The notes under the pieces: model-generated
Told to the model about the DNA's origin: nothing
Seen by the model: only the letters and a program-made list of their open reading frames with translations
Database searches by the model: none
NCBI GenBank assembly: GCA_050084515.1
Contig: CM114271.1
Location: 28,644,001-28,708,000, forward strand
DNA length: 64,000 bases
Direction of reading: 5' to 3'
Source of the DNA: Blasia pusilla
Lineage: Eukaryota
Translations under genes and position numbers: made by a program
In this document: positions 9,416 to 48,939 of the stretch, one piece after another
Layout: every line of letters starts with the position of its first letter
Position numbering within the stretch: position 1 is the stretch's first letter

Positions 9416-10078
9416 GCAACCCGTCAGCATCGGACGGGTTGCACGCTTATGCTAAACATTGTCGAAGCGAGCAACCCGTCCCTCTCCGACGAGTTGCTCG
9501 GATACCGCTCCTTCTTGCCCAAAGATGCCGGAGGCGTGCAAACCGTCTGTTCCCGACGAGTTCCGCGGGTGCCTCGCCTTTTAGCCCAAAGACGGCGAGG
9601 CGTGCAACCCGTCGCCCTCCAACGGGTTGCGCAAGGGCCTCGCCTTGTGGTGCAGCCAGCCAGACTCCGACGACTTGCACGGGAAGCCCTCGTCCTTAAC
9701 CCTTGATGAGGGAAGCGTGCAACCCAAAGGTCTCCGACGGATTGCCCAAGATTCGTCCCGTTCCCATCCCAAACACGGCGGAGGCGCGCAACATGTCGGT
9801 CTCCAACGGGTTGCGCGGGTACCTCGCGTTCTTTTCCGAAGACGACAGAGGCGCTCAACCCGTCGAAGACCGACGGGTTGCTCGCGCACGTGGCGACGTA
9901 CCCAGGATGGTGGAGGCGCGCAACATGTCGGTCTCCGACGGGTTGCGCGGGTACCTCGCGTTCTTTTCCGAAGACGACGAAGGCGCACAACCCGTCGGTC
10001 TCCGACGGGTTGCTCGCGCACGTGGCGACGTACCCAGGATGGCGGAGCCGCGCAACCTGTCGGGCTCCGACGGGTTGC
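9416..10078. repeat. Array of about 10 copies of the palindrome GCAACCCGTCGGnnnCCGACGGGTTGC at roughly 65-bp period, between the two divergent genes
   Basis: Copies visible near 9416, 9471, 9538, 9604, 9719, 9788, 9856, 9920, 9987 and 10052; includes a roughly 131-bp two-unit tandem duplication. Confidence 0.92.
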
Positions 10079-11671
10079 CATTTTTCACGTCCGGACTTCC
10101 GTAACATCCAGCACGTCGCCATCGAAAGGACGACGGGACCCAACGGTCAGCCCAACGGCTAGAACGTATAAACAGGGCAGAAATCGCTCATTTTCGGTTT
10201 CTCATTTTGCGATCTTCATTCCTCACTCTCCCGCGCAGCAGTTGATCAGATACGATGGGGCATTTCACACGGCCACACATCGCCAGTCGATAGGAGGGAA
10301 CGAGAGCGAGACCGTTTGACGCAACGACAACGAGACGGTTCGACCGAGCGATCGTGGGACGATTCGAGCTACCCATCAAGGCGATTCGAGCTCCCATCTC
10401 GACATCAGCAAGGCGACTGATCAAGGGATTTGTCGTGGACATAGGTGGAGGCATTTCCGGAAAAAATGACAAGGAAAAAATCACAAGCCAACAAGTTTAG
10501 GAGCTTCACTCCGAAGTCCATTAGGACTCCTGCGTCAGCTTCTCCTGGGCCTCGTTCGGCGAATGAAATTAGGTAGCAGGAAATCGAGGAGCGGGAAAGG
10601 GAAGCGGAGCTGCATAACCAAGTGCTTCTTGCGAGACGTGTTCAAGAGGCGCTAGATAAACAGAACGCACAGGCTGAGACGTCGCAGGCCTTGAAGAAAA
10701 GGATCGCCGGATTTAAAAGAGAGAAAGAAGCGCTGGGACGATCGGTGAGGAGGGCAGCATTGGCTAAAGCGAGGAGGGAAAAAGCGATAGCCATTGACGA
10801 TAGCCAAGCCCGTCCAACCGCAAGTGTTGAGATGCGGGAAATGTCCCCCACAAAGTCCGGGGACACAATCAACATAGTGGAAACGCCAGAAGTTGAAATC
10901 GATGACGACGAGGTATGAGGACCGCCTACGAGGAGATGGTGGACATGGCCGAAGAAGCCGGAGAGCGGTCATTCTCGACTCCAAGCCCGGCGGAGGACAT
11001 CGACCTCTATCGGATCGACGAGTTCGCAGTCGATTTGCCAGCTTCTGTCTAAGACAAGTTAGCTGGTCAAGAAACCGACCCCATTTTCGAGCGGGTAAGA
11101 GAGGTTCTGGGTTTTTTGAATTATGTGAATTGCAATTCATTGGGATTTCAGTGTAGCTTATTCCTCTTGTCCCGGTTCTGACAGGTGGTAAAGCAGATGG
11201 CACTCATGGAGGGCCACAACGCCCGAGGATTCCATCATGCGGATTGCGGACAATGGAATACGTCCGCAAATTTCATCCGCGAGGACATCGTGAAGCTAAA
11301 ACAATCGGCGGCGGCAAAGATCTCACGCCGACAACTTTCCTCCCTTCTATGTTTAGCCTTACGACGAGCATGGAACCCAAGCTGGTTACTGAGGAGGACT
11401 TGGAAAAGCTCGACACATTCTCGGAGGATGCGAGACCAGGACTTGAAGGCAAGTTGAGGGCACGGAATTCAGTTGGATGAGGAATGCATTTCTTCATCCG
11501 GGATGGAAATCACGAGTTCATGGCGTGGACCAAGTTTGCGGAGGAGCGGCCCAACTCATTGGAGGCACATTTCTGCGTGAAGGCAGTGGTCCTTCACCCA
11601 TACCCTCATCACATGGCGACGGTGGAGATGGCAATGCATGCCATGAACACGTGAGTATCTTTAACACTTTT

Positions 11672-12392
11672 GCAACTCGTCGGACTCCGACGAGTTGCTC
11701 GATTGATGAATGGGTTAGGTTTGTTTTTGCCGAAAGCAACTCGTCTGACTCCAACGGGTTGCTCGACTGCACGCTTTTTCGGATGTTTTTTTAAGATTGC
11801 AACTCGTCAGACTCCGACGAGTTGCTCGATTGATGAATGGGTTAGGTTTGTTTTTGCCGAAAGCAACTCGTCGGACTCCGACGGGTTGCTCGACTGCACG
11901 CTTTTTCGGATGTTTTTTTAAGATTGCAACTCGTCGGACTCCGACGACTTGTTTGATTGAACATAGATTTAACTAGTTTTTGGCCCAAAGCAAACCGTCG
12001 GAGTCCGACGGGTTGCTCGACACGCCGCCTTGTCAGGATGTTTTTTGAAGCTGTTTTTCCCCAAATCAACCCGTCGGAGTCCGACGGGTTGATTTCGCCC
12101 AAAAATAGTTTCGAGGCAAGCAACCCGTCGGACTTCGACGGGTTGCTTTGGGGAAAAAACCTTCTAAACCTGCAGTCACTCGAGCAACTCGTTGGAGTCC
12201 GACGAGTTGCATTCTTCAAAAAACATCCTCACAAGGCGGCCTATCGAGCAACCCGTTGGACTCCGACGGTTTGCTTACCAGGCATTAGCAAATCTAAATG
12301 CAATCCGTCGGACTCCAACGGGTTGCATCATTTAGCTCGTTGCTAGAATTCAACCTTGAGCTGTGACGACTCGTCGGAGTCCGACGGGTTGC
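11672..12392. repeat. Intronic array of about 12 palindrome copies (about 55-75 bp period)
   Basis: For example caacccgtcggagtccgacgggttg at about 12067 and gcaacccgtcggacttcgacgggttgc at about 12120. Lies inside intron 11651-12436 and includes a roughly 127-bp tandem duplication. Confidence 0.92.
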
Positions 12393-14538
12393 AAGAACCC
12401 ATGTAATTTCCTGACAGTTTGAGTTTGGATGTGCAGGATTGTATCGGAGGGGAAGGTCACCCACCACTGGATCCAGGACTGCGATCGGGTGAGGAAGGTG
12501 CTTACGACGTACGCGAGAGAGTACAGGGGGTTCTTGGGCGATGCCCTTGTCAATCAGATGCTTGCAAAGGGTGTTCAGATTAAGAAGAAAACTTGGGCAA
12601 ACAAGTTTATTTCTCAAGATGCAGCCGTAACCATCCTTTGCTGGTCGAAGATATAGGCCGTGAAGAAAAGCGTTGCACTGGAGCTGGAGCGGAGGGAGAA
12701 GGTATCTGCGTCTGAGCGCGCCAAATTCATCCAAGCTGCAGCACATGCTGCAACGAAATACACGGCGAGCAAGATGCAGCGATACATCAGCATTCTAAAC
12801 CCCGAACTTGGTCCGGAGTTCTACAAGGAGCTCAAGGCGATTATCAAGCGCCCGTGAAGAGGGATGAAGATCCGCATGGTCGGATTGGGAGAAAGTGTCA
12901 TTTGGATCGCGTGCATCGGTTTGCGTTGTCCGGGATAAGCGAGTTCAGGAGGATACGATCGATGAAAATCGATCTCGAGGGCTCAGAGGCCTAGAAGAGG
13001 GCGGCACACCATCCTCCGGTGTGTCCGATCCAGTGATCTCGCATTGGCTACGCCGAATGGTCGTTCCGGGACGCGCGTTGCGGGTAATCGGAAGTCCATC
13101 TTTGGACGATGCGCAAGCGAGCTCGAAGATTAGAGCCCATTCGCCGAAGCAAACCTTGAAAGTTCGGAGATCTCGAGGTTTGGTTCTACGACATCCGGAC
13201 AAGCCAACGAAAAACCAGGATTCAAGACCATGTTCAAGGTTTGCGTCCTCCCTCGGTGAGCTTGACGAAGAAGTAGAGGGGAACAAACGGGATCAAGCGA
13301 AGAAGAAGCGAGATCTACAGGAGCAGACGGCCGATTTTGTTTGACTAAAAGCTGCCCAACGGATGGTCTTCAGGTTCCTCATCCAGTGTAAGAACGCAGG
13401 TACGTGGGGAAAATTACCGGTAGCCTTGAAATTTTGGGCTTCGCCGCCGGATGCAAAGACATTCTCCATGTACGACGTGGAGATGGGGCAGCACATGTCC
13501 GATTGGGAGGTGGAGAATTGCCCCATTTGGCTCGACTTCAACGACCCTGAAGACATCACGGATAAGGACTTACGAGTGCTTCGTGATGCAGTGGCCTCAG
13601 GACAAGACGACATCCCCAATTTTGTCCTGCCTGAAGACTTCTTCGGAGGAGATGCAGTAGAGCAGGCCCACGAGACAGCTAAGTTGGCTTCCAAGGTCCG
13701 CACAGCCAAAGAAAAATCCACAGCGGGTCTCAAAGGCAAGGCGAGGGGAGGGAAAAATTCAGAGGCTGAGTCTTCCCAAAGAGAGGCTGAAGATTCAGGG
13801 CTAGAGGCGGAATCGTCCGGACGAGCGGGGAGAGAGGGTCGGACCAGGTCCTCGGCAAAAAAAACGCCACCAGAATTTGAGGTCATAGAAACCCCGACAA
13901 GCCGTCCCCAGGCTAGGGAGAAGTGGAAGCGAGAGGTGCCCGGGTTGTCCCAAGGAGTATACAGCCCATCATCCTTGGGAAGACACAGACAAACAACGAC
14001 CCGGACAAGCGTTCTCCTTCAGTTCACTCCTTTACTGGATGAGTGAAGGGCTTCAGTTCTCAAGCGTCGACACCAGCCATCAAAAAATTGACAACGCTGG
14101 AACGAAAGCTCCAACGAAACGGGCACGCTGCCTAGACGGTGAATGGAGTGGTCGAAGAGGTTGCGGTGGATCTCTTGATCACCGATCTGCCCTCGGGGTT
14201 GCGACTTTGGGGCGAGAATCCGTCGGACGAGGTACCTGAGTGGAATGTGCCACTCTCTTATGACCAGATTGCACTTTTGTTCTCCTTTGCAGACGCCTAT
14301 CTGAGTGACACGGGCTGGTTCTTGGTGTTGTCTGGAGGGAGCGAGGACGAGCTCTTCAACCTCCAGTGCGTCAAGAGGTCGCTAAAGTGGAGGACGACAC
14401 AATCGTGGATCATAACAAATGAGTACCCACTCCGATCCGCGACGAGTCAGATTCGGGTAAGGCTCAATTCCTGTTCTATAATTTCAATTATATTTTAATG
14501 ATGTGTATAATGAGAGTCAATCTGGGTTTTTTTCAGGA

Positions 14539-14837
14539 GCAACCCGTCGGAAGGCGGACGGGTTTCTTTAGAGAAGCCCATGCTCGGGTGAGAGCAACCC
14601 GTCGGTTTCGGCGGGTTGCATCTTTCCACATACAGGAAAACGCGGTGTACCTGCAACCCGTCGGAACCCGACGGGTTGCTGTTGCTTTTGGTTTTTCCCA
14701 GTTGATTTTGGTTTTTGGATGCAACCCGTTTGATAGCGACGGGTTGCTCTCACGCGAGCATGGGCTGCTCTAGGCCAGCAACCCGTCGCCTTCCGACGGG
14801 TTGCTCACGGAAAAAAACAACGGAGCCCGACGGGTTG
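14539..14837. repeat. Intronic array of 5-6 palindrome copies splitting the MTase-like domain
   Basis: Copies near 14539, 14594, 14653, 14721 and 14778, downstream of the GT donor at 14457. Confidence 0.9.
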
Positions 14838-16319
14838 ATCCAAAGTCTGTTATTGAAAATTTTCTCAAGGCGACTTCTTTAGTTTCTGACATTGTTTCCA
14901 ACGTCTTTGATTTGAGATGGACCGTCCCACGCTCATCGCTTCGGTTCGCCGAGCATAATTTCCAGGTGTTCAAGATCCAGGATCCTGTGGATCCATGCTC
15001 AGATGGGTATAGCTTAGATAGTTTGTACAATTCCCCCCCAAGAATTTACATGCAAGACAGTACCCCACTTCTGGGAGGAAGGGAAAAGTCGCCAGCCTTG
15101 ATGCAAACGCTCATCGAGCTCTGCTCAAGCCCGAGTGACTTGGTGTTCGACTTAGTGGGACATTCAGGGGCAAGTATCAAAGGCGCATGGCAGAGTGGCA
15201 AGAACATTCTCTGCTTCGAGTGAAGGCAGGAACTGTTTGACCTTTGCAAGGAGGCAAAGGCAGAATACGAAAGGCTTGTTGGGGCGTACAACTCTCCACC
15301 GGCCGAGCTCGGTTCAGAGCCACCCTTGGTAGTGACTCCATCGTCACTTCCAACGATTCCCAAAATCGGGAGGGCAAGGCCGAAAGTGATTTTGCAAGAG
15401 CTCTCCAACGATGATGAGTGAGTTCAAAGAACTCAACGACCCAGCTTGACTACAGCGTTTGGAGTAGGGAGTTTTTTTATAATGAGGCAAAAGATTTCAT
15501 AGAATAGATCAAATGTACAGTTCCAAGCTTTTTTCGGATGATATAAAGCAGAAGATTTTTTCGATCGATGGTGGTGCTTGTAAATGTTTGCTGATCATTT
15601 TTTGTCTTTTCGAATGTGATCGTCTCCACGGACTTCTATTTTGCAACCCGTCAAATTTCTCCTGCTTGCAACTTTCACTTTATGACCACTGCAACCCGTC
15701 GGATTTCTCCTCATTGCAACTTTTCGCTTTTTTACCACCTCCAGGCAACCTGTCTGATTCTGACAGGTTGCCTGATCGGACCCTTTCCCTGTTGGTCCAA
15801 CTTAAGAGGCAGTCTGGCGGGCTTCTTCCCTTGGCACCTTCCCCTCAACTTGTAGAGGCAGGCGTAGGCTTCTTTTCTTCTCTTAGACGTGTTGGATTCC
15901 TTCTACCTGTGCGGTTGCCATAATGGTATTACCGGGGATGGAGCAGATATTGATTGTCACATCTGAGTAGCCGATAGGCCGAGATCTATCGTGGATAGGG
16001 CGTAGGAGCCAACGGACTATCTTGAGTGTAACTTTGTCCCACAGTGTCGGATGAGGTTGAGGATAGGTCCATTGTGTCAGGACCGTCGTTTTTAACGACT
16101 TTGATGTTGAGGTCTTTTTGGTAGGGTGACTTGTTGACAGGTCACTGCCCTTGGTAACTGTCTTGCCTTGAGTTACCAAGGGAAGGGCTATTTTTAGGAG
16201 AAGAGCCTTTTGGCTCTTCCCAACCTATATAAGAGAGGCTTTATATGCCGATGTAGATTGAGGAGTGGAGTTTTAGGCCGGGTGTGCCGTTTTTACTACT
16301 CTTTATTTTTACATGAGAA

Positions 16320-19300: not shown

Positions 19301-22300
19301 GAGTCGACTCGCTATTTTCCGCCTTAGAGTTGGCGGCGTTGGGAGTTGGACCAAAAGCGAGGTGTTCCGGTTGGCCGCCACGTTGTGTGAGCGTGGAGAG
19401 ATGAGCGCTTCTTGCTCGAGGTAGTTGAGGAGGTGGTGGACTTTCCTCGAGCCGGTGCTGGGGCGTTCCCCACGAGTCATGGCATCTTGGCGGCGGGCGC
19501 GGTTGGTAGATATGCCACTCGACCGCCATAGAGCGAGCGATGGTGACACTTGGAGTAGTGTTCTTGGATAACCGAGGAGTATTTCGCTTTGTTAGTCCGA
19601 CGGGACAGTATACCACCGCGCAGCGCGCCCTACTTGATTCGGGAGCGCAACCCTTGATGTTAGGAAGCGGCGTGTTTAGCGTTGGGGTTACGGAAGGCCG
19701 ACATTGAGCCTTGTCCCTTCCAGATCTGAGACCTCGATTGGGCGTATCACCCACTCGATATATGACTCGACAGAGATTGTTGTGAGAGTCCAGCCGAGCA
19801 TGCGGCGGATAGTGCTATGGTGCGACGCGTGCGATTACGACACCGGTGGTAAATGCGATGTGTTGGTGGGGAGTGCGATGTTATATCCCCTAGATTCATC
19901 TTGACTTCTCGGGAGGAGACCGTTGCTTATCGGCCAGGATGGCGGTCGGTGACGGTCGGATGAGTCGATTACCCGTGTAGTTTGCGGGACGAGATGGTCG
20001 ATCACGAGGCGAGATGCGGTGACCACGTTGGTGGCTTTCACGAGTAGTAGTGTTGGCGGCCAGAGAGTTGTTGGAGGGGAACGCACATGCGGAGGATGTC
20101 CCGAAGAGCGGATAGTCCCACGGAGAGACAGGCCATGGCGGGTGTCTCTTCCCATGTTAGCGATGCCTCTTCACCATTATGGGGTACGACGCGAGAGCTA
20201 CAGAGGAGTGCCAACGACCTCGTGAGGCAGGCGTGGAGTCATGTTTTAATCCCAGAGCAGCGAGAGTCACGTGGCAATCGGGCTCTTGGAGTGGAGACGA
20301 TGACCCCACTAGATACCACACGTGTTGTGGGGGAGTGCCCAGAGGAGGGTGTTAGGGTGTTAGATCTCTTTGGAGGGATTAGCATCGGATTGGCTGCAGC
20401 ATTGCAAGCGGGCATACGGGTGCATCAGTACCTTTATGTGGAGAGAGATGAGACCGCGCGGCGAGTATCATTACGTCACCTGGCGAGATTGGTCCAGAGG
20501 TATTCTGAGTTGTTGTCGGTATCTGCAGTACGGGGATACCAGCATACGCTACCCGTCGACATATCTTTGGTGGGGGCGCACGATCTGGATAGAGTTGGCA
20601 CCATTCATTTGGTGATTGCTGGATGGCCATATCAGGGTCATTCATCAGCTGGCCGAGGATTTGGATTGCAGGATCCGAGGTCAGGGATGTTTTGGAAGAT
20701 GCTGCGAGTAGTACGACACTTGCAGCAGAGTCAGATATGTTCTCCAGCATATATTTTGGAGAACGTGCCGTTGTTGGGAGATACTCGTGCACGTGTGATG
20801 ACGAGTGTACATCAAGTGAGGTTCTGGTTGGGACCGGCTGTGTTGTTAGATGCAGCGAGAGTTGGGTCACGTGCCCATCATCCACGACTGTGGTGGACGA
20901 ACCTAATACCATCAGAGGTACTGAGTCGAGCCTAGAGTGGAGTCCAGAGAGCACCACATCTCACGGTGGATGCTATTTTGGACTCAGGGCGTTAATCTCA
21001 GGTGGTGACACACGATGATAGACCACCGTTGGCCACGGCCAATGGGGTGGGGGAGTTGAGGGCAGCCTTACCTACGTTGGTGAGCTTCCCAGCATCCCAT
21101 GCCTTTCGTCAGGGAGGGCCAGGCATGATTTGGGATGAGGTGACCAGAGTATTGGAGGAGCCTACAACAATGAGCGCGAGCGTGCCATGGGGTTCACAAC
21201 CAGTACTACGGCGGTGCCAGGGATGACTGAGGCATCACGGAGACAGGTGTTGGGGCAGGCGATGGACCTCAACTGTCTCACATGGATAGTCAGCCTAGGT
21301 ATGGGTGGCGAGAGGCGGACGGATGCGAGTGTCATCCATGCCGTCACGCCCACGAAGTTGGACCACCGCCCTACGTGGTGCAATACGAGGCATTGGTGGG
21401 GGCGAGACGAGGAGAGATAGGCACCCATGGACTTCCTGGGACGTCGTTCGAGCAGAGAGTGCGAAGGCGGCTAGAGTAGCACATGTTCATTTTTCGGATG
21501 TGGAGCATGGTGTAGGAGGTCAGAGTGGAGTGGCTGTTGCGGAGGTGGCTAGGGTTGCTACATAGCAACCAAAGCCGGAGATTGCGTCCTCTTCGGTGAG
21601 GTCACGATGGAGACTTGGGAGCCTGTGATACGTCTCAAGTTGATAGGAGGAGAGCGACGGCGAGTTCATAGGTTTCTGATAGGTAGAGGCTATTGCGCAG
21701 ATTCCACGCCCTATAGATGTGAGTCGAGTCCGAGCATTTCTTGGACTGGCGAACTTCTATCGACGGTATGTCAAGGGTTTTAGTGCGATCGCAAAGTCTT
21801 TGACCTTGTTGACAAGACTTGATCAGGTGTGGTTGTGGGGAGATGATCAGGAGCGAGCATTTCAGGAGCTCAAGGACATGTTGACGTCCTCACCCATTTT
21901 ACAGAGACCGATTAGGGGTCGTCCATTCCAGTTACATACGGATTGGAGCATGTTGGGTCTAGGAGCAGTGCTTACTGAGAGGGATGACGAGGAGAGGGAG
22001 TTCGTTGTGGCTTACGCGAGTCGATCGAACAACATTGCAGAGGCTAAGTACAGGTCCTACGCAGGAGAGTGCTTGGCTGCAGTGTGGGCCGTGGCACATT
22101 TTAGGTGCTATTTATTTGGCAACCCTTTCACACTTATCACTGATCATCAGCCGTTGAAGTGGTTGATGGAGTCCGACAAGCTTACGGGAAAGATTTCCAG
22201 GTAGGCTCTATTACTACAGGAGTATGAGTTTGAGGTGGTTCATAGGCCAGGTCGGCTGAACCAGGATGCGGATGGGTTGAGTCGTAACCCATGTCCGAGT

Positions 22301-23960
22301 TAGAGAGACGTCACGGGAGCTCGATGGCACGGAGAGAGTGATGAGGAGATGGTGCCCGGTTGGCATGCATCTGCCTATCTTTGTTGGTTGACTATGGCAG
22401 GTCAGCCACAGGTGATGACTCCAGTGGTGGGATTGGATGATGAGTCCTTGGATGCGGAGGTTAGTGAGGAGGCGACAAGTGGTCGTGATATCCATGACGA
22501 CGTGGAGGTTGTGGACTTCTTGCGCACAGGCGTCATTGCGAGTACAGTGAGTGCTAGGGAGCGGGATCGGATCCTACAGAGAACCAAGAGGTTCAGGTGG
22601 GAGGGGACTCACATTTTGCGGGTATGGGGAGATGGTAGGATACGAGTGGTACCTCATCCTTCCCAGCGAGCACGTGTAGTGCGACATGCCCATGAGGAGT
22701 TGGAACATTTTGGAGTAAAGCGTACTTACAGCTTACTCCAGGTTCAGTATTGGTGGTGCGGCATGCATACTGGGGTACAACAGTTTGTGGCCTAAAGTAT
22801 GGTATGTGACAGAGTGCGAGCATCCTTCAATGCTCCCACTCCGCAGTTACATCCTTTGCCAATTATGGGTTTAGGTTATCAGTGGAGTTTAGACTTTGCG
22901 GGACCTTTGCCATTGACAGGGCGTCATCATAGGTACGTGTTAGTCATGGTGGAGCATTTCTCCAAGTGGATAGAGTTGGTGGCACTACCAGACAAGGCGA
23001 GCGAGGGAACAGCTTATGCGTTTCTAGATTGTGTGCTTAGTCACTTTGGTGCACCGGCGGAGGTGTTGCCCGACGGTACCGAGTTTGGGGGAGAGCTTCA
23101 GGCCTTGTGTGATCAGGCGCTGATAGATCACCGCACCACGTCCAGGAATCATCCTGAGGCGGATGGATTGGCAGAGAGAGTGGTACAGACGGTGAAGAGA
23201 GGATTGCGCAAGTATGGCTTGCAACGGGGACAGTTGAGGGAGTGGGACCTACAGTTGGCATGGTTGGCTATGGGTTATTGCTTTAGTCGGCAAGCATCCT
23301 TGGCGTCATTTTCACCGTACTTTTTGCTCTTCGGGAGAGAGCTAGATTTACCTGCAGCGATTCGACGTGACATGGCGGAGGTGTTAGATCTTGATGATCT
23401 AGATGTGTGGGTGCAAGCATGTTCTCAGAGGGCGAAGTTTTTCGTAGAGTTATGCCTATGGCCTTTGAGAACTTAGCTATTGCCCAGCATAGAGATACAT
23501 TGAGGTACGCGACCATTAGTGGAGGAGGTTATCGTCCAGGGATTAGGAGGTTTCATCCTGGAGATTACGTGTATTTACAGCAGGCGGCACCCACGACGTT
23601 AGATGTCACTACAGGGGGCACGATCCTACGTGTGCGTGAGGTATTACCGACCGGAGTCCTCATGTTGGAGGGACGAGATGGTATGGTTTGGAAGGATCAT
23701 GTGCGCAATTGTGCGCCATGTCATCTTCCGAACGTAGATGGGACGGTGGATCCGAGCTTGGCTGTGGTACCTGCAGGCTTGAGGTGTATGTTGTGCGGAT
23801 CTGCGAGGGATGCAACCACCATGTTGGTATGTGATCATGTATATGTATGAGTTTATTTTTGTACATGTTTGGATCGACCCGTGTGTGGGGAAGATCGGTG
23901 TTGTGTGGTGTAGATGTGACGAGCAATGTATGTTGTGTAGCGATATGTATGCGCACGACA
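16320..23960 (+). mobile_element. Ty3/gypsy LTR retrotransposon G1: gag - protease - C5 DNA methyltransferase - (RT deleted) - RNase H - integrase - partial PHD - LTR 3' end
   Basis: gag from about 17620 (DLDDFIQEFDTWCD), CCHC knuckle CDHCHKYGHTRDTC at about 18660, protease ALLDSGAQPLMLG at 19627-19665, RNase H LHTDWSMLGLGAVL, integrase WSLDFAGPLP...DGLAER; ends in atgcgcacgaca at 23960 like the other LTRs. The left boundary is approximate. Confidence 0.9.
20345..21300 (+). pseudogene. C5-cytosine DNA methyltransferase domain embedded in gypsy pol (copy G1)
   Basis: Motif I VRVLDLFGGI, II LYVERD, IV IAGWPYQGHS (canonical PCQ), VI YILENV, VIII AHHPRLWWTN, IX-X ERAMGF...RRQVLGQAMD; in-frame stop at 20933. 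Confidence 0.9.
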
Positions 23961-25220
23961 TGATACTGGATGGGTGTCACATTGCGGAGCGTACAAGGTA
24001 TACTGCCGAGGAAGGCGGTGGGACTCGAGACAGGTTACATGGGACCGTTATGGTGTACCTAGTGGGGGCCAAGGCTCTCGAATTCGCCAACATTTTCGAT
24101 CCCCGTCTACAATCGGCCAAAGGAGCCACTTGAATCCCAGGACATTCCTTTGGTACCGTCACCGAGGAGAGTTAGGAGTAAATTTGTAGATGACGAGGCT
24201 GAAGAAATCATAGACTAGGTGAAATGTATATTTCCGAGGTTCCTTCGGAGGTAATAAAGGACGAGATTTTTTCAACCCATAATGGTGTTTGTAAAAGTTT
24301 GCTGGAATATGTTTTTGGACTTGTGGATTGTGTTCTTTTAGCTACTCAAAATTACAATTTCGCAACCCGTATGATTCGACTTTTGCTTTTTGCTTTGCTA
24401 CTTTTAACCATTTCCACGCAACTGCCGGATTCGGCAGGTTGACTCGCTTGAGTGATCGGACTCTATCGGTGAGACCAACTTCTGGCGCATTGTGGCGGGC
24501 TTCTTGACTTTTGGCTCGTTCCCCTTCATTCGTCCAACCAGTTGTAGGCTTCTTTTCTTGTCTAAGATGTGCAGGATTCCTACTACATGTCGGATAGCCA
24601 TTTCGGATTCCCAACCCGTTAGATCGTCGTGGGTGCAGGGTGGAAGAAAATCACTTCTAAAAATCTTTCCTTTCTTATGGTGAGCTTTCTTACGGGTTGG
24701 GAGGGGTGCAGCTTCTCGGTTTCTCAACCTAAGGATCTGATTTGTTCACATTTGAGAAAGTTTGTCTTGAGCAGACACCATTCATAACCGACAGAAAGTA
24801 GGTTATAGGGCAATTTAGGGGAGGCCATGATGCAGGCAACAATCCCTGCAAAAAGAGAGGTACCCATCCAGGTGGTCCTCCAACAAAAATACCAAGGGCA
24901 CTGCTTTTTGTTGACCGAGACAGGGAATGTTAAGAAACTTAGGCTCACATGGAGAGTGATGGAAAAATGTTTAGGGTGGTCTTATGATGTCTCCTTTTTT
25001 CTCGCCCCCAGGAAAGAGGAGGTTTTTTAGGGCCAAATGTGGACCAGTAAATACTCTCTTCTTAAGATTTCCTGAATTTCAAAGCAAACAAAAATTTCAA
25101 ATATGTCAAAAAGTTTTGAAGAGAGGAGGCGGATTTGGCCTTTTTTTTTTTAAGAGAGACTCTCCTCTCTTCCTCTCTTCCTCTCCTCTCTTACTCTCTC
25201 TTGTCAGAATACCAGCCCCC
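23961..25220 (+). mobile_element. DNA transposon copy C: terminal about 1.26 kb of the palindrome-bearing element
   Basis: Aligns by eye with 47300-48939 (with an internal difference) and ends in a CT-rich tract plus GAATACCAGCCCCC. Confidence 0.85.
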
Positions 25221-40115: not shown

Positions 40116-40524
40116 CCTTTAGCGATCAATCAGCCATTCTTTCGAGTCTCGATCGTCTCATCTTCCTGCCTCTCTTGCTAGAGATTTAGGTACTTTTCTA
40201 CTGCCGGAATCCCTCTACACCAATTCCTGTGTGATCATTATTGCAACAACCATAGCTCGTTGTTGTCAGGGGAGCGCGTCGCCTTTGTTGTCATATCCGG
40301 TGATCGCCATCGTCATCTCTCTTTCTATACGAGCTAGTCGATTGCACGAATCTACAAAGATGCCCGTCATGCACGTGTACGATAAAAATACTACCGGTGG
40401 GCTCCATTAGAACATAGTGTCTTTAATAGCTCTTTTTTTAAAGTTCCTGTGCCATTAAACTTCTCCAAAAAAAATTCATTTTAACCAGGTTTGAAAATGG
40501 TTAAAGACAGCCAAGTTACTAATA

Positions 40525-40944: not shown

Positions 40945-43100
40945 AAAAATTTAGCATATACAAAATTAATCATATGAATTTTTTTCAAGGGATGAAGTAT
41001 TACAAAGTCTAAAAAAGCATACCAATATAACACTTGACACATGTAATGTTATTTTAATTTTAATTTAGCACTTCATTATATACAACATTCCTAGTGTAAA
41101 CACCTATTTTGTTAATAGCCTTTTCATTATCTGTCATAATATGAATAGAATTCCTAGAGCCTACTCTTGACAAGGCAACATACAATTGCCCATGAGAAAA
41201 TATTGGATTAGACAAGTAGATACCAACTCTATCTAATGTTTGACCTTGAGACTTATTAATCGTCATTGCAAAAGCAGGACGTATAGGAAATTGAAATCGT
41301 CGCAAATCAAAAGGTAGGCCACAATCAGACGCAATCAATGGAATGCGTGGAATGAAAACTCGAGCTCCGATGTTTTTTCCTGTGATAATTTTTGCATCTA
41401 TAAGATGTCTACTAAAGCCAGCTATCACCAACCGAGTCCCGTTTGCTTGTCCCTTGGCTCCATTCATATTCCGTAATAGCATTATCGGAGCTCCAATCTT
41501 CAAAGTCAAACAATGAGGTGGCAGTCCAGATGGTAAACATGTGTTCAAAAATTATGTCAGATAAACAAGTCTCATCTCATCGTGGGAAACAGTATCAGCA
41601 CTCAAGAAAGTATGCTCCAGCAAAAACAAAATAAATCATTAATAATAAGAGCGATGATAGAAAAATGTAGCAATAGGTAATGAAAATATAATAATGATAT
41701 TCAAAAACATAAATATTACCTCTCCTGGAAATCGAGACATGATTTCCGCATTTATAATATCCACAGTTGTATTCTTGGTTGACAAAATGGATGTACCCCT
41801 CAAGAAATCAATGTCACTCCACTTATTAACATCGTGTCCATAAACAACGTCAATGAGATCATTCATCCTTGTCGTTTTTACAATTATCGCATCCGGAACT
41901 TGTATAAAATCCTCTCCAAGGTCCAAATGTAATGGTACTCCACCCTCTCCTATCTTTAGTAACCACGTTGCAAACGCTTCTTGCTCTTCTCGTGCATATC
42001 CTACAAAAAATATAAGATCAAGAAATGAGTACATATTAAAAATTTAAAAAAACTACATGAAATAAAAAAGGAAAAATATTAGGTTAATTCTTAAATACCT
42101 TGTAAAGTATTAACTCTCATGTTGGTAGTGAGTTTCAATAATCTCACGTGAGACCAAATAAGAGATCTCCTCAATGTTGCACGCACAATTGTAGCACGAT
42201 CTCCACGACGAACAACTAGAAGAAATTGTCGAAAGTCACCACCGAATAAAATGATCTTCCCCCCAAAAGGCAAGTCTCGTAATCGAGTATCCGTCAAACC
42301 CATGATATCTTGCAAAGTACGATTAACGGCCTCGAATGCATGACGATGGGTCATGCTTCATAGGAGCTTCATCCCACACGATCAACTTCGCCTTTTGTAT
42401 AAGGCGGGCCATATGACTATTGACCGATAGGCTAGAAAATAGATAACAAAACAATATGTGAGGAACATTTATGAAGGATAAATCTAAGAATATAACAATA
42501 ATATGCATGCCATAATTATAAAGTAAAAGGAAACAAAATCTTAAATCTAGACTTACTTGCAAGTGGAGCTTTCATGTACTTGAATAGGAATCTTGAATCG
42601 AGAATGAGCAGTACGACCTCCATCCAATAATAAAGCGGCAATTCCTGAAGATGCAACTGCAAGAGCTATATGACCCTCGCTCCGTACCATTGCAAGAAGA
42701 CGGTTGTACAAAACGGTTTTTCCCGTTCCCCTAGGACCATCGATAAAGAAAAGTTTTTCCTGAAAATCCATATTTGTAGTCACAAAAATGCACTTTAAAA
42801 AGAATAAAACTTAAAGAGATTTAAAGAGTAAAGAAGTCATCTTAAAATTTACTATGCATAATATCCACTTATAGAAGGTGGCGCATCTTGTAAGATATCG
42901 TGAAAAGCATTACAAATAACTTCCCAAATAGCTCGTTGTCCATCATTTAAAGATATCTCTTCTGCTCTCACACGTTCACAAAGCATATCATGATCGTAGC
43001 AGAGCTCTTCCTCTTCTAGACGCGAAATAGATAAATTACGAGCTTGGAAATCTGGTTGAGGCATGTCGGGGAAGTCCGCCATACTCTTACCATGATCTTG
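40923..43100 (-). mobile_element. Helitron 3' part with intron-containing PIF1-type helicase pseudogene (43100-41060); Rep domain absent
   Basis: [82 protein letters not shown]; frameshift near 42350; Helitron 3' end about 135 bp past the stop. Confidence 0.92.
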
Positions 43101-43276
43101 AAACCATAGGTACATGTCGTGGACGCAGTTTGCAGAGGAGTGCCCAAATTCATTGGAGGCGCATTTTTGCGTAAAGGCAGTCGTGCTCCATCCATTTCCT
43201 CATCACATGGCAACGGTGGAAATGGCGATGCATGCGATGAATGCGTAAGTTTCCTCTTCCTTAAGTTTGATTTCTT

Positions 43277-44014
43277 CAACCCGTCGGAGTCAGACGGGTT
43301 GAATAATTGGAAAGCTTAAAGATGGGCAGGAATGATTTGAGTCTCTTGCCACCATCCTGTTTATGGTCAATGTCAAATATAGTCAAGCAAACCGTTGGAG
43401 TTCGACGGGTTGCCTGGTGGCCAAGCACACCAAATTAATCCGGGATATTGACACTAGTCGAACATCAATGGGTGGAAAACTGACAGCATGATTTATTTGT
43501 TCTGCAATCCATCGGACTCCAATGAGTTGCACAACGAGAGGTAACAAATCATCAAGCGCCTAAAAGCAACTCGTCGAACTCCAACGGGTTGCATCCCCCC
43601 CCCCCCTCCCCAAGGGTAGGTGGTCCGAGTACGAGAGCTTGCTTTTAGGCATCAAATTCCAGCTTTACAAGGCATCGCGCAACCCGTCGTACTCCGACGG
43701 GTTGATATGTGCAATTTTTTTCCGGAAACCTGTCTCCAAATTGAAGTCATTCTACAACCCGTCGGAGTCCGACGGGTTGTAACCAAGGACTAAATCGGTT
43801 GGACCAGAAAGTCACGAAAAGAGAGTGTAACCCGTCGGACTCCGATAGGTTGTAATTCTCTCTAAAAATTTCAAGAGTGTTGCAATAAGTGTAACACAAA
43901 GATACGTGTTGCGACCCATGAGACTCCGACGGATTGCAATATTTATCTCTGTGCTACCATTTCGATCCCCATAGGTTGACAGAATTACAACCCGTCGAAA
44001 CCCGATAGCTTGCA
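43277..44014. repeat. Intronic array of about 9-10 palindrome copies with mutually unrelated spacers
   Basis: Copies near 43277, 43387, 43503, 43566, 43679, 43754, 43827, 43911 and 43988. Confidence 0.9.
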
Positions 44015-46111
44015 GTATTCTTACCTTGTGTTTGGATGTGCACGATTGTATCCGAGGGCAACATCACCCACCATTGGATCCAAGATTGCGACAAGGTGAA
44101 GAAGATGCTTACGACGCACCCGGCAGAGTACAAGGGATTCTTGGGCGACAGTTTGATAAATGAGATGATGGCGAAGGAAGCTCAAATAAAAAAGAAGACT
44201 TGGGAAAATACCTTCATTTCCCAAGATGCAGCCATCACAATCCTATGTTGGTCCAAGATAATGGCCGCCAAGAAGAGTGCTTCCTCAGAACTGGAGCGGA
44301 GGGAGAACGTGTATGCGTCGGAAAGTGCAAAGTTTATTCAGGATGCCGTATCTGTAGCTACAAAGTACATTGCAAGCAAGAGGCAGCGATACATTGCAAT
44401 TCTCAACCCCGAACTTGGCCCGGAGTTTTACACGGAGCTCAAGGCGATAATTAAGCGCCAACGGAAGAGAGACGAAGATCCATAGGGTCGGATCGGCGAG
44501 AAAGTGTCTCTGGACCGCGTGCACAGATTTGCGCTTTTTGGGATATCCGAGTTTAGGCGAATCCGACTGATGAAAATCAGTCTCGAGGGCACTGAGGCCC
44601 AAAAGCGGGTGGCACACAATCCTCCAACAGTTTCAGATCTAGTGATCTCCCATTGGCTACGAGAATGGTCATTCCGGGACGCGTTGCGTCTTCTCGGGAA
44701 GTCCATGCTCGTGGGTCTTCAAGCGGAGCTGAAGAAGATTGAGCTAGTTCCAGAGGAAGCAAACCTAGAGGCTATAGAAGATTTTGAACTATGGCTTGAT
44801 TACATCAGAGATAAGCCCACGAAAAACCGAGGATCCAGGATGATGTTCAAGAATCACATCCTCCCTCAAGCAGACCTGGATGAGGAAATAGATGCCAAAA
44901 AATGGGATTTTGCAAAGAAGAAGCGGGATCTTCAGGACCAGGCGGCCGAGTCATCTTGACAAAGAGCTGCCCAGCAGATGGTGTATAGGTACCTTATCAA
45001 TTGTAAGAATGCAAGTACCTGGAAAAAATTACCGGCAAATTATCGGCTTCTCCGCTTGATGGAGAGGCATTCTCCATGTACGACATGGAGATGGGGTATG
45101 TCCGACTGCGAGGTTAATAATTGTCCAATCTGGTTGGACTTCAACAACCTAGAGGACATTACAGAAAAAAATCTACGCGTGGAGTATGATGCAGTGGTCG
45201 CAGGTTGGGACGACATTCTGAAATTCGTGCAACTTGACAATTTTTTCGGAGGAGATGCGGAGGAGCAAGACCTCAAGACAGCGGAGTTGGTGGGCAAAGT
45301 CGTCACCGCCAAAGACAAATCCACAGCGGGTTTGAGGAAGGCGAGGGGATCAAGGAATTCTAATGCGGAGTCTTTCAGAAAAGAGGCTGAGTCCTTAAGG
45401 CAAGAGGCGGAATCGTCCGGGGGAGCGGGGTGAGAGGGCCGGACCAGGTCCTCGTCCAAGAAAACTCATGTGGAGTGTGAGGTAACAGAGACTCCCACAA
45501 GCTGACAGCAGACTCATGAGAAGCGAAAGCGGGATGCGTCTGGTTTGTCTGAGGGAGGAGATAAGGATGTGGAATACACTCCATCATCCTTGGGCACGAA
45601 TAGGGAAAAAACCACCACGACAAATGTCCTTGTTCACTTGACTCATCTTGTTGATGAGCTACAGAGTTTCAGTTCTCAGGAGTTAACATCTGCCATCGAC
45701 AAATTGACCGTGCTCGACAAAAACTCCTTCGAAACTGGCACGCCCCTTGGATGGTGCATAGGGTGGTTGAGGAGGTGGCGGTGGACCTCCTCATTTTGGA
45801 TTTGCCTTCTGCGTTTTGCTTGTGGGACAACAATCCGTCTGACACTGTCCCAGACTGGAATGTCCCGCTTTCGTACGATCAGATCGCGTTGTTGTTTTCT
45901 TTTGCCGACGCGTATCTGAGTGACAGGGGTTGTTTCTTGGTTCTCACTCGAGGGAGCGAAGATGAGCTCTTCAACCTTCAGTGCGTGAATAGGTCACTGA
46001 AGTGGAGGATGGCACAATCATGGGTAATTAAAAAAGAGTATCCACTCCGATCGGCGACGAGTCAAGTCCGGGTAATTTCTCTTATTCAACAAATTGAGTT
46101 TAATAGAAATT

Positions 46112-46610
46112 CAACCCGTCGGGCTTCGAAGGGTTGCATCTTTGCATGCAACCCATCGGATCCCAACAACTTGTGTCTGCGGTGTTGCAATCCGTCTGAA
46201 AGTGATGGGTTGCAAATTCACCAACAAGTCTCCATTGACTACAACCCGTCGGAACCCGACGAGTTGCAAGTAGCATTGCTTTTCCCCGTGTTTCTGGAGT
46301 GATGCAACCCATCTGAAAGTGATGGGTTGCTCTTATATTAGGAACTTCTCAACTTTGAACAATTATATTCAGTTGTAAGCCAACCATTGCACTCGAAACG
46401 GTGGAGTTTCTGTCCAGCAAGATGAGCAACATTTCGGCTTCCGACGGGTTGCTCATGGCCAAAAAGGAGTCTTAGAGTTGTAAGACAACCCGTCGGACTC
46501 CGACATGCCACGGTTCTGTCAAGCCTATAGGCCTAGTTTAGAGGAGTTGGTAATTACTATGGACTAGTATGACGGGTTGAAAAGCAACCCGTCGGATCCC
46601 GACGGTTTGC
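46112..46610. repeat. Intronic array of about 8 palindrome copies
   Basis: Copies near 46112, 46149, 46188, 46241, 46304, 46430, 46486 and 46584. Confidence 0.88.
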
Positions 46611-48939
46611 ACATTGCGTCAATTTATGGAGAGTAGATCAGCCATCTACTAGGTTTTTTTTTTTTGTTGACATTATTTTTTACCTGCTTGTTTACAGATA
46701 GACCACTAATTTGTCTAATGCTTTGTAAGGCTTGAGCACAACTTCCAGGTATTCTAGATCCCGGATCCAGTGGATCCATGCTCCGATGGGTACAACTTAG
46801 ATAGTCTCTATTATCCCCCCACCCTCCCCTGGGAATTTACATGCAAGACGGGACCCCCTTACTTGGAGGAAGGGAAAAGTCACCTGCCTTGATGTAAACG
46901 CTCATTGAGCTCTGTTCGAGGCCGGGTGACTTGGTCTTTGACTTAGTGGGCCTATTAGGGGCGAGTATCAGAGGCACCTGGCACAATGGCAGGAACATTC
47001 TCTGCTTTGAGGGAAGGCCAAAACTTTTTGACCTTTGAAAAGAGGCAAAGGCGGATTATGAGAGGCTAGTGGGAGTATAAAACTCTCCTCCAAATCCAAC
47101 AGCTCCGGTTCCAGAACCACCATTAATAGTGACACCATCGTCACTTCCTACTATTCTGAAAATCGGGAGGGCAAAGCCGACAGTAATTCTGGAAGAGTTA
47201 TTCGACGATGACGAGTGAGTTCAAAGATTTATTGGACCCAGCTTGACTGAAGCGTTTTGGAGTAGGGATTTAGTGCTTTCCAAGGATGGAGCACATATTG
47301 ATACTGGATGGGTGTCACCTTGCAGAGCATACAAGATTTACTGTCGAGGAAGGCGTTGGGACTCAAATCATGTTACACGGGACCATTATGGTGTACCTAG
47401 GGGGGGGGGGCCAAGGCTCTCAAATTCCCCAATATTTTTTAATCCTCGTCTACAATTGGCCAGAGGAGCCACTTGTATCCCAAGACATTCCTTTTGTAAA
47501 GGAAACTAGGAGAGTTAGGAGTAAATTTGTAGATGACGAGGCTGAAGAAATCATAGACTAGATCAAATTTATATTTCAGAGCTTCCCTTGGATGTAATAA
47601 AGGACACGAAGGTTTTGAACCATGATGGTTTTTTTAAACTTTTGCTGAATTATTTTTCGTTCTTGTCAATTGCGTTGGTCTATCTACTCGAGGCTGTTTA
47701 TTTTGCAACCCCTCAGATTCCGACGGGTTGCATCTTGTCACAATATTTTAAACCCCTTGCACGCAACTTTTCAGATTCCGACAGGTTGGCTACTTGAGTG
47801 ATTCCACTCTTTTCTTGTTAGTCCACTTTTTCAGGCTCTCGTATTTTGGCAGGCTTCTTCACTTTTGCCTCGTTCCCCCATTATCGTCACACCATTCTTC
47901 TCTAACACGGTATTTCATAGACGTGTTGGATTCCTACTACCTGTCGGATTCTCATGTCAAATTCCCAACCAGTCGGATTCTCATGGATTGCAAGGTGGAA
48001 TGGAATCACTTCTCAAGATCCTTCTTTTGTTGTGGTGTGCTTGCTTGCAAGGGATGCATTCCATCGGATTCCGATGGGTTGGAAGGGATGCAACCTGTCG
48101 GATTCTGACATTTAGGGTCTGAATGAAGGGACATGGGTGCATCAGTTCCTCTTTCCTCCTGACAGCTATCAATCTTTTGACGCGATTATCCTCTCAATCT
48201 CATCACATTTTCTTCTTGATGCATATATTTCTCAGTGGCTGAGAGAATGGTGAAACCAAGTTGTCAAATGCATAGCACTCCATGGTATAATTTATGCATC
48301 CATTCATGAGCCAATATCATCCAATGTTGTCATGAAAGTCTTCGGCTACCATCAGTGATGAGTGATTTGTTTTGTTGTGGAAAACCCCCTCATGGATGAG
48401 TATTGATCGGATGGGATATTCAATGCCTTTTGCAAGAAGAGTCAACAATCCATAATGTCAACCACATCTTCAGAGAAGTTAAACCTTAAAGGGCACAGGA
48501 GTCTATTGAGACCATAGTTAGAGTCTTTATTTGAACCTTTCATTGAGATGAAATTGCTACTTCTGGTCATATTATATGCCGACGGTCCTCCAACAATAAT
48601 ACCCCTCAGCCCGACTTACTATAGAGCTGGCTTAGACATGCAATGTGAAGAAAATTGGGTTCACATGGAGAGTGATGGAAGAATGTTTGTAGTGGTCTTA
48701 TGATGTCTACTTGTTTTTCCGAGCCTGGAAAAAGAACGTTACTTTAGGCCCGGATGTGGTCCACTTGCTACTCTCTTATGAAGATTTCATGAATTTGAAA
48801 GCAAACAAAAATTTCAAAATTGTCAAACAAATTTGAAGAGAGGAGGCGGATTCTGCCCTCTTTTTTTTTAAAGAGAGACTCTCCTCTCTTCCTCTCTTCC
48901 TCTCCTCTCTTACTCTCTCCTGCCTGAATACCAGTCCCC

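Follow-up and report, generated by a model that had tools for sequence, protein, structure and literature searches.

First conserved exon of a pseudogenised member of a multi-copy, probably transposon-associated ParB/sulfiredoxin–methylase gene family of non-seed land plants

The DNA analysed here, called the window throughout, is a stretch of 64,000 nucleotides (nt) of Blasia pusilla contig CM114271.1 (positions 28,644,001 to 28,708,000). It is eukaryotic, repeat-rich DNA with GT-AG introns, fragments of Ty3-type retrotransposons, a Pif1-helicase (Helitron-like) element and an LCAT-type host gene. Self-comparison of the window reveals two copies, A and B, of one unit of about 4.3 kb, copy B lying 32 kb from copy A. 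The two copies align in three blocks, 11516-11697 with 43110-43301 (77% identity), 12419-14460 with 44026-46075 (74%) and 14951-15473 with 46734-47271 (80%). The stretch under study lies at the 5' side of copy A (Table 1). We consider it likely, together with the mechanism proposed below, that this stretch is the first conserved exon of a pseudogenised member of a multi-copy, probably transposon-associated family in non-seed land plants, whose proteins join a ParB/sulfiredoxin (Srx) domain to a methylase. As judged partly from structural models, intact members are proteins of about 1000-1150 residues with a disordered basic N-terminus, the ParB/Srx domain, a helical domain, a long charged linker and a C-terminal beta-class methyltransferase.

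The frame 11481-11654 of copy A reads GMHFFIRDGNHEFMAW...EMAMHAMN. Its motif is DGNHE (11502-11516), with E where the family has R, and copy B shows NHRYMSW at 43102-43122; both belong to the motif F-x-V-x-DGNHR-L-x-A-W. The exon ends at the same codon position in both copies, with '..ATG AAC AC' at 11650 in copy A and '..ATG AAT GC' at 43244 in copy B, each followed by a phase 2 donor (GTGAGT at 11651 and GTAAGT at 43245, respectively). The acceptor AG of copy A is found at 12435-12436, and exon 2 begins at 12437, reading T-IVSEGKVTHHW. Thus both motifs and the shared intron position, which a first-pass annotation of this DNA had reported, are read where it placed them. It had also described copy A as frameshifted, and the exon indeed has two or more frameshifts besides an in-frame TGA (11478-11480). 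Its family motifs stand in two frames: IPSCGL (11229-11246) and MEYVRKF (11253-11273) stand in the frame of 11157, DIVKLKQSAAA (11284-11316) and AWNPSW (11368-11385) in the next one. The homology of copy B begins at about 43099-43110, and the minus-strand Pif1-type helicase sequence upstream of about 43100 shows that this copy is 5'-truncated, as the same annotation had implied. Further stops and frameshifts are found in the later exons of both copies. Both are pseudogenes of a high-copy family and incapable of making a functional protein. The first-pass annotation mentions neither this nor the palindrome arrays described below.

The pattern of substitutions between the copies bears on the course of this decay. 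Over the 47 shared codons of the ParB exon 73% of the synonymous and 6.6% of the non-synonymous sites differ, which gives a ratio of non-synonymous to synonymous change (dN/dS) of about 0.03. The ratio is 0.10 in the N-terminal half of the methylase, 0.12 at the start of exon 2 and 0.22-0.32 in the remaining parts, the ParB exon being the most constrained part of the gene; all these ratios are rough, since the synonymous sites are saturated. Both copies thus come from lineages that were long kept functional, and their decay came only later. Separately, a 34-nt stretch of the ParB exon (11242-11275) is covered by 35-51 RNA reads per run. At either end these reads continue into sequence of no relation, so that the short piece is shared by an abundant transcript that arises elsewhere.

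Copy A read through its stop (P0001) was used as HMMER query against 1.84 billion representatives and gave three matches, with E-values from 3e-5 to 4e-4. Starting from these matches, 24 family proteins were assembled, including one from the liverwort Calypogeia. A metagenome scan with the family yielded 78 loci with a GC content of 29-48% (25% in one locus); this composition, and a plant Phi_1/EXORDIUM gene in one locus, indicate that the loci are plant DNA. A query with the family alignment found 15 full-length plant proteins, all named 'hypothetical', from Riccia and Adiantum (six each) and from Ceratodon, Selaginella and Diphasiastrum (one each). A family of this ParB–methylase build is therefore present in liverworts, mosses, lycophytes and ferns, where it is annotated only as 'hypothetical protein'. 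Among 34 homologues with a mean column identity of 26%, G-Y, F and F..G-N-H-R-L..W are invariant, and IPLCRL, VR, WDPxW and YHPRV nearly so. The loop F-x-V-x-D-G-N-H-R-L, of the G-x-x-R phosphate-binding type after a beta-strand, is invariant or nearly invariant in the 34 members. By this invariant core and the strong constraint between the copies, the motif of copies A and B is, on sequence grounds, not a chance match. In the metagenome loci most open reading frames (ORFs) of this exon end 50 residues past DGNHR, that is, at the same intron position, evidence that is qualified by in-frame stops in 22 of the 33 copies examined (11 are open).

Several family members deviate from the common build. 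The Diphasiastrum protein (P0040) has an additional N-terminal Myb domain, the ParB-like domain is duplicated in a Riccia protein (P0028), and two Adiantum models (P0035, P0041), possibly merged gene models, carry an additional C-terminal FCP1/NIF phosphatase domain.

Relatives were searched more widely. The initial homologue search with a middle exon, among longer proteins only, gave no match. Scans of viral_contigs and genome_contigs with the family alignment returned 71 and 33 motif matches, with no relative among them, and the motif pattern extended by W has no viral match. With the full-length homologues tblastn found one weak methylase match in phages and none in plasmids; the exon of the N-terminal methylase half has no match in phages. 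The first-pass annotation had proposed a phage-like architecture that gained introns. Its two-domain order holds, while no phage, plasmid or prokaryotic relative is detectable by sequence; a phage origin of the family is plausible. Literature searches, which covered sources other than subscription journals and the supplements of the algal papers, found no report of the land-plant family, only the algal papers discussed below.

The fold of the conserved domain was assigned from structural models. An AlphaFold model computed from the family alignment is confident, with a predicted local distance difference test score (pLDDT) of 93.6 and a predicted template modelling score (pTM) of 0.85. Of 48,161 PDB representatives compared in a wide VIA-align search, just 14 chains score Z>=2, and 13 of them are of the ParB or Srx type. 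The list comprises KorB (Z 7.3, root mean square deviation 2.8 over 95 residues), PadC (6.8), Arabidopsis Srx (6.4), ParB-N of pNOB8 (6.2), free serine kinase (6.0), human Srx (5.4), Atu1540 (5.1) and SbnI (5.0), followed by SspE, Spo0J, BrxU, Osa and a Dnd-system protein, and one unrelated chain (NF1). We take KorB, free serine kinase, SbnI, SspE, BrxU and Osa to share the ParB/Srx fold. With Foldseek, ParB-CDP, Srx and Noc come out on top in the PDB (best E 0.043, probability 0.98; none at E<=0.001), and the fold search of BFVD is headed by ParB-like proteins of phages and giant viruses, including a 'DNA methylase' of mycobacteriophage Vincenzo (again none at E<=0.001). The model of a second family member (P0034 from Riccia) matches KorB at Z 8.0 and gives a similar Foldseek ranking, with no match at E<=0.001. 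Weak hints from sequence point the same way: sub-threshold Pfam matches to DndB (E 0.066), DUF1015 (E 0.019) and DUF6551, matches of 7 of 26 members to the PHROG 'ParB-like partition protein' family phrog_1033 (best E 0.075), and a DndB-bearing cluster among the nearest in the ESM Atlas (score 0.91). Phage proteins that were chosen from IMG/VR by the string F-x-V-x-DGNHRL are Pfam-positive for ParB_N or GmrSD_N. Box II of the family reads DGNHRL, not the canonical GERRxRA. In our judgement the modelled domain is securely assigned to the ParB/Srx fold, an assignment that rests on the purity of the match lists and not on the scores. The model search thus bears out the domain that the first-pass annotation had named from its motif.

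A helical domain follows the ParB/Srx domain in the P0034 model, which is confident (pLDDT >90) over residues 100-410. Residues 101-505 match ParB-N of pNOB8 over 214 residues (Z 7.2), residues 134-450 match Spo0J over 158 residues (Z 6.2), and residues 271-510 match the DNA-binding domain of SopB over 104 residues (Z 4.8). On these models the helical domain is likely to be a ParB-type DNA-binding domain.

The second part of the gene is methylase-like. Its assignment comes from the full-length homologues, in which PF01555 (N6_N4_Mtase), with a Pfam cut-off of 26.7 bits, is found in the Ceratodon protein P0029 (1147 residues; ParB-like domain at about 240-385, PF01555 at 903-1119, E 4.9e-7, 30.4 bits) and in P0040 (E 4.2e-8, 33.8 bits). 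The window copy alone stays below the cut-off (last part of copy A, E 0.01, 16.2 bits), and this is the sole Pfam match among the single-exon ORFs of the gene copies; metagenome locus L003 matches the same profile region (E 0.004, 17.4 bits). Single methylase half-exons have no match of relevance among the PDB profiles. The full-length plant homologues map collinearly on both window copies. Local hidden Markov models of the exons gave 66 matches for the exon after the ParB exon and 38 and 35 for the two methylase halves, and all 139 lie on the strand of the ParB exon, none upstream of it. Of the non-redundant metagenome loci, 18 extend at least 3.5 kb downstream; methylase exons lie at +1.9 to +3.8 kb on the same strand in 13 of these and are missing from the other 5. 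Together, the above-threshold homologues and the conserved exon order show that the two-domain gene is real; the claim that both domains belong to one gene is sustained by single polypeptides (P0029, P0040) as well as by the collinear mapping and the loci.

Raw RNA reads of the same species label cover the region at 0-8x. They are mostly 90-95% alike to it and hence come from paralogues. Two such reads, both of a paralogue, connect 14456 with the exon starting at 14917, the second of the two splice junctions that the earlier annotation had predicted. In the gene body the first mate is mostly on the minus strand, as sense transcription would give with a stranded library of the usual kind.

In beta-class methyltransferases the catalytic motif IV is (D/N/S)-P-P-(Y/F/W), and the motif I that binds S-adenosylmethionine (SAM) is F-x-G-x-G. 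Motif IV of the window copies is DLPS, not DPPY; most relatives follow the consensus D-[VILY]-P-x-[NG]-L, with DTPF in P0029 and DFPT in P0040. Motif I is canonical in P0040 (FDPFVGCGST) and reduced in P0029 (VDLSASTGAS) and in the window (FDLVGHSGAS).

Table 1. Coordinates of gene parts, palindrome arrays and adjoining repeats of copies A and B in the window
Feature	Position	Strand	Remarks
Palindrome array 5' of copy A	9418..10076	+	six copies of GCAACCCGTCGGA-N-TCCGACGGGTTGC
Copy A, ParB/Srx-like exon	11185..11650	+	IPSCGL 11229, DGNHE 11502-11516, EMAMHAMN 11625-11648; pseudogene
Copy A, intron 1	11651..12436	+	GTGAGT..AG, phase 2; 12 palindrome copies spaced about 64 nt
Copy A, long exon	12437..14456	+	post-ParB helical region, charged linker, N-terminal half of methylase-like domain
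Copy A, motif IV equivalent DLLITDLPSG in long exon	14169-14198	+	several stops and frameshifts in the exon
Copy A, intron 2	14457..14916	+	GTAAGG..AG; palindromes at 14541, 14595, 14654, 14779
Copy A, last coding part	14917..15421	+	C-terminal half of methylase-like domain; in-frame stop 15221-15223
Copy A, GGREKSPALMQTLIE in last coding part	15074-15118	+	
Copy A, motif I equivalent LVFDLVGHSGAS	15140-15175	+	
Repeat directly 3' of copy A	15454..15921	+	common to 47511-47741 (after copy B) and 24168-24601
Pif1-type helicase (Helitron-like) sequence	41063..43099	-	has a P-loop region; abuts and truncates copy B
Copy B, remnant of ParB-like exon	43100..43244	+	start inside the motif (NHRYMSW 43102)
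Copy B, intron 1	43245..44035	+	six palindrome copies; the first orthologous to the first of copy A
Copy B, remainder	44036..47215	+	long exon to about 46075, DLLILDLPSA 45784-45813; frameshifts and stops
Copy B, intron 2	46113-46608	+	three palindromes
Copy B, LVFDLVGLLGAS in last exon	46931-46966	+	

The surroundings of the two copies are rich in repeats. The relative of the repeat 3' of copy A at 24168-24601 sits behind a long terminal repeat (LTR) retrotransposon integrase, and the copy number of this repeat is far above that of the gene. Just beyond, at 15955-16310, lies a repeat in which both DNA word depth (up to 72,000) and RNA coverage reach their maximum for the stretch; it is probably part of a very abundant element. 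The sole obvious host gene of the window encodes an LCAT-family acyltransferase with at least two exons (38166-40118, minus strand). A PHD finger ORF (30157-30621, plus strand) lies inside a retrotransposon-rich block. In Ty3-type LTR retrotransposon copies of the window, a C5 cytosine DNA methylase domain (PF00145) occurs at 20051-20932 and 58618-59019 (plus strand, E 9e-7 and 1e-4), next to sequences for reverse transcriptase (RT), RNase H and integrase at 21683-23473, 25694-27541 and 59414-62116. These elements recall the retrotransposons bearing a DNA methyltransferase (DNMT) that the accessible text of PMC5890265 reports for charophytes and dinoflagellates.

The introns of the gene hold arrays of a palindrome of 25-27 nt, GCAACCCGTCGGA-N-TCCGACGGGTTGC. 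At up to three mismatches it has 32 matches in the window versus 0 expected, and 29 of the 32 lie in introns or upstream of the two gene copies. Six matches are upstream of copy A, 12 in its intron 1 and 2 in its intron 2; intron 1 of copy B has 6 and its intron 2 has 3, one lies 0.5 kb after copy B and 2 elsewhere. Apart from the palindromes the introns of A and B are unalignable. The symmetry is kept in 89.7% of the cells, with compensatory changes at two pairs; the covariation score was reached by 4 of 500 shuffles, for copies that are related by duplication. The window palindrome was not found in the metagenome loci, even at up to 4 mismatches. Of the 34 other loci, 8 have arrays of different palindromes of their own, either next to the gene or within it; L005 has 14 copies and L024 has 9, and an intron of L025 holds 5. 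An array spacing of 64 nt is common to L024 (3-259) and copy A (11674-12390), which are unrelated members with different array sequences.

Members of the family are numerous. In one DNA run of the organism, 48,444 contig pieces match a region of 7.5 kb with an identity of 90% or more, and the annotated plant genomes contain several paralogues each. The two decayed copies in the window and the mostly decayed metagenome copies form a many-copy, decayed pattern as in transposon accessory genes. By its copy number, its decay and the published analogues, the family is probably transposon-associated. The flanks of copy A have no coding similarity to the metagenome loci.

The results described so far establish the fold, the domain order, the conserved intron positions and the high copy number of the family, and, for the two copies, strong purifying selection in their ancestral lineages and their own decay. 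As for the mechanism, the ParB module would recognise DNA of the element that encodes it, with the palindrome arrays of the gene's introns and upstream region as the most likely target. This recognition would bring the methyltransferase domain to the element DNA, which would be marked with N6-methyladenine (6mA) or N4-methylcytosine (4mC). Alternatively, where motif IV is degenerate, as in the subfamily of the window, the methyltransferase domain may be non-catalytic and serve as a module that binds SAM or DNA.

A number of results weigh against parts of this reading. The profile search (ParBc/ParB_N_Srx) suggested with the first-pass annotation detected no ParB: neither copy A nor P0002-P0004 nor a single one of the 26 members matches Pfam ParB_N (PF02195), even with a limit of E<=10, and the PDB sequence profiles gave nothing relevant for the ParB family. 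In hhalign comparisons with the phage ParB_N proteins, a set picked by the motif itself, only 18 motif columns align, and with the motif masked the E-values of 0.2 (N-terminal part) and 0.45 (C-terminal part) are not significant. The structural scores are middling (best Z 7.3-8.0), and Z<8 may reflect a common arrangement; a helical insertion of 45-50 residues before the DGNHR strand explains them in part. For the helical domain, the agreement with ParB DNA-binding domains is weak, and many generic helical matches reach similar scores. No RNA read crosses the junction 11650/12437, the first of the two predicted ones, at a coverage that is low and mostly from paralogues. The activity of the methylase is doubtful, because neither the second proline nor the aromatic residue of motif IV is present in the copies and in most relatives. 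As to the palindromes, tandem duplication inflates the window counts, 26 of the 34 loci have no recurrent palindromes near the gene, and the density of 0.28 per kb near the gene is only twofold that elsewhere (0.14). Finally, no transposase domain, long inverted or terminal repeats, target duplications or conserved flanks are found around the two copies or in the long loci, which are incomplete contigs.

Other explanations have to be weighed with these results. It could be argued that the DGNHR string is a chance resemblance within a domain of another fold, as the lack of Pfam and PDB profile matches and the restriction of the hhalign alignment to the motif would have it; the confident model, a match list of almost purely ParB/Srx type and the concordant hints from DndB, DUF1015, phrog_1033 (7 of 26 members) and the ESM Atlas cluster make this highly improbable. 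The arrays are a more balanced case. They may be hairpin miniature inverted-repeat transposable elements or a satellite that colonised the introns, or a source of small RNA, unconnected to the ParB-like domain, a serious alternative to which we give somewhat less than an even chance. Palindromic short elements are common in plant DNA, the tandem array of copy A has a satellite-like period of 64/127 nt, most other loci (26 of 34) are without recurrent palindromes near the gene, and the covariation is modest among copies related by duplication. Against this, 29 of the 32 matches form five separate clusters, all in or upstream of gene copies, amid 64 kb full of repeats; both introns of both copies hold palindromes though they are otherwise unalignable; unrelated family members have different arrays at similar places; and the same association is described, in the accessible text of bioRxiv 10.1101/2025.02.11.637652, for a ParB-domain accessory gene of red-algal transposons. 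Between candidate parS-like sites and an unrelated satellite the balance is about even. Taken further, the arrays could be part of a selfish, self-recognising epigenetic module, in which the ParB protein loads on lineage-specific palindromes (a eukaryotic parS) and methylates its own element, site and protein co-evolving; we regard this full scheme as speculative and, as it stands, unlikely.

Doubts of another kind concern mobility. The family might be made up of host genes of the ordinary (domesticated) sort that multiplied by duplication, in which case the window copies would be dead duplicates and no mobile element would be involved. Intron positions kept across members of 25-40% identity, strong purifying selection, annotation as genes in six plant genomes and the missing transposase or terminal repeats all fit such an origin, which we nevertheless think rather unlikely given the very high copy number in the DNA run of the organism, the in-frame stops in 22 of 33 metagenome copies and the position of the copies among retrotransposons and a Helitron-like element. 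Moreover, synonymous saturation between A and B with few disabling lesions speaks for insertions from separately evolving active lineages, and the algal analogues lie inside transposons, as the accessible portions of PMC12477816 and bioRxiv 10.1101/2025.02.11.637652 describe them. A mobile origin of a different type would be an extra ORF of a giant LTR retrotransposon, located between integrase and 3' LTR. The 0.5-0.75 kb right after both copies is homologous to sequence after a Ty3-type integrase in the window, with a sharp boundary (25220 and 48939) at which the shared homology stops, and in locus L037 fragments of a gag zinc knuckle, of RT and of integrase precede the gene in the same orientation. 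Such a pol pattern upstream is present in only one of about 13 long loci, none lies upstream of copy A, nested insertions are common in the region, and sense introns would be lost on retrotransposition, yet they are conserved; we therefore hold this origin to be improbable. Membership in the neighbouring DNMT-bearing Ty3 elements was considered as well and is kept only as a low-probability rival. The preferred reading remains a ParB/Srx–methylase gene family that is probably carried by transposons and decays in many copies.

If the scheme of a self-recognising module is true, the family would be an element-encoded DNA modification system other than 5-methylcytosine in embryophytes. Proteins of ParB-plus-methylase type were recently noted as accessory genes of algal transposons, and the plant family extends this kind to land plants. 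The palindrome arrays are concrete candidate DNA sites for the plant protein. An active methylase would bear on the disputed presence and location of 6mA or 4mC in plants; an inactive one would be an example of a methylase fold that is reused as a binding module. The fold assignment and the alignment can be used for annotating the plant family.

A comparison with known systems shows which parts of the plant protein are shared. The ParB-N6_N4 methylase fusions of phages and plasmids have the same domain order, the same F-x-V-x-DGNHRL motif and a beta-class methylase; one from a viral contig (L106) has a ParB-like domain with DGNHRL at residue 61 fused to N6_N4_Mtase (PF01555, E 5e-26). They are half as long as the plant proteins, without the long linker, the insertion in the ParB domain or introns, and have the canonical DPPY, and the pairwise similarity of phage fusions to P0029 is limited to the motifs. 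The chromosomal and plasmid CTPases ParB, KorB and Noc share the N-domain fold and probably also the following helical domain, and they bind palindromic sites. Unlike them, the plant family has DGNHRL, not GERRxRA, and the insertion of 45-50 residues. We know of no ParA partner for the plant family.

Eukaryotic parallels are found in three groups, each compared here on the basis of the accessible text of its source. Iyer et al. 2016 (PMC4738411) describe chlorophyte and chytrid methylases of 'chlorophyte-type Dam' fused with a helix-turn-helix (HTH) of the ParB type, and haptophyte clade 6 methylases derived from phage ParB-terminase loci. In these cases eukaryotes independently acquired methylases that are linked to ParB modules from loci of phages, which likens them to the plant family. 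As far as that text goes, they are Dam-type (group 2) with only the HTH of ParB, or with FHA instead of ParB, whereas the plant protein of land plants joins a ParB/Srx N-domain to a PF01555-type methylase. In the red-algal Plavaka transposons, PAG3 is a ParB domain with a 2-oxoglutarate (2OG) oxygenase and PAG2 an N6-adenine methylase with SET (bioRxiv 10.1101/2025.02.11.637652). The PAG3 gene has in common with the plant family a ParB-type domain, and it adjoins tandem inverted-repeat arrays that are the proposed binding sites. According to the same text the Plavaka ParB is joined to the oxygenase with the methylase in another protein, unlike in the plant family, and the plant arrays differ in lying partly inside the gene's own introns. 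The accessory protein of the Ectocarpus transposon Sola1-1_Ec32, with ParB-like and N4/N6 DNA methyltransferase domains (PMC12477816), is brown-algal and is located within a defined Sola1 DNA transposon, unlike the plant family, and it is likened to it by domains, not by sequence. As described there, it is, like the plant protein, eukaryotic and intron-bearing and combines the same two prokaryote-type domains; it is about 1100 residues long and transposon-associated, and it has been proposed to bind and modify its own element.

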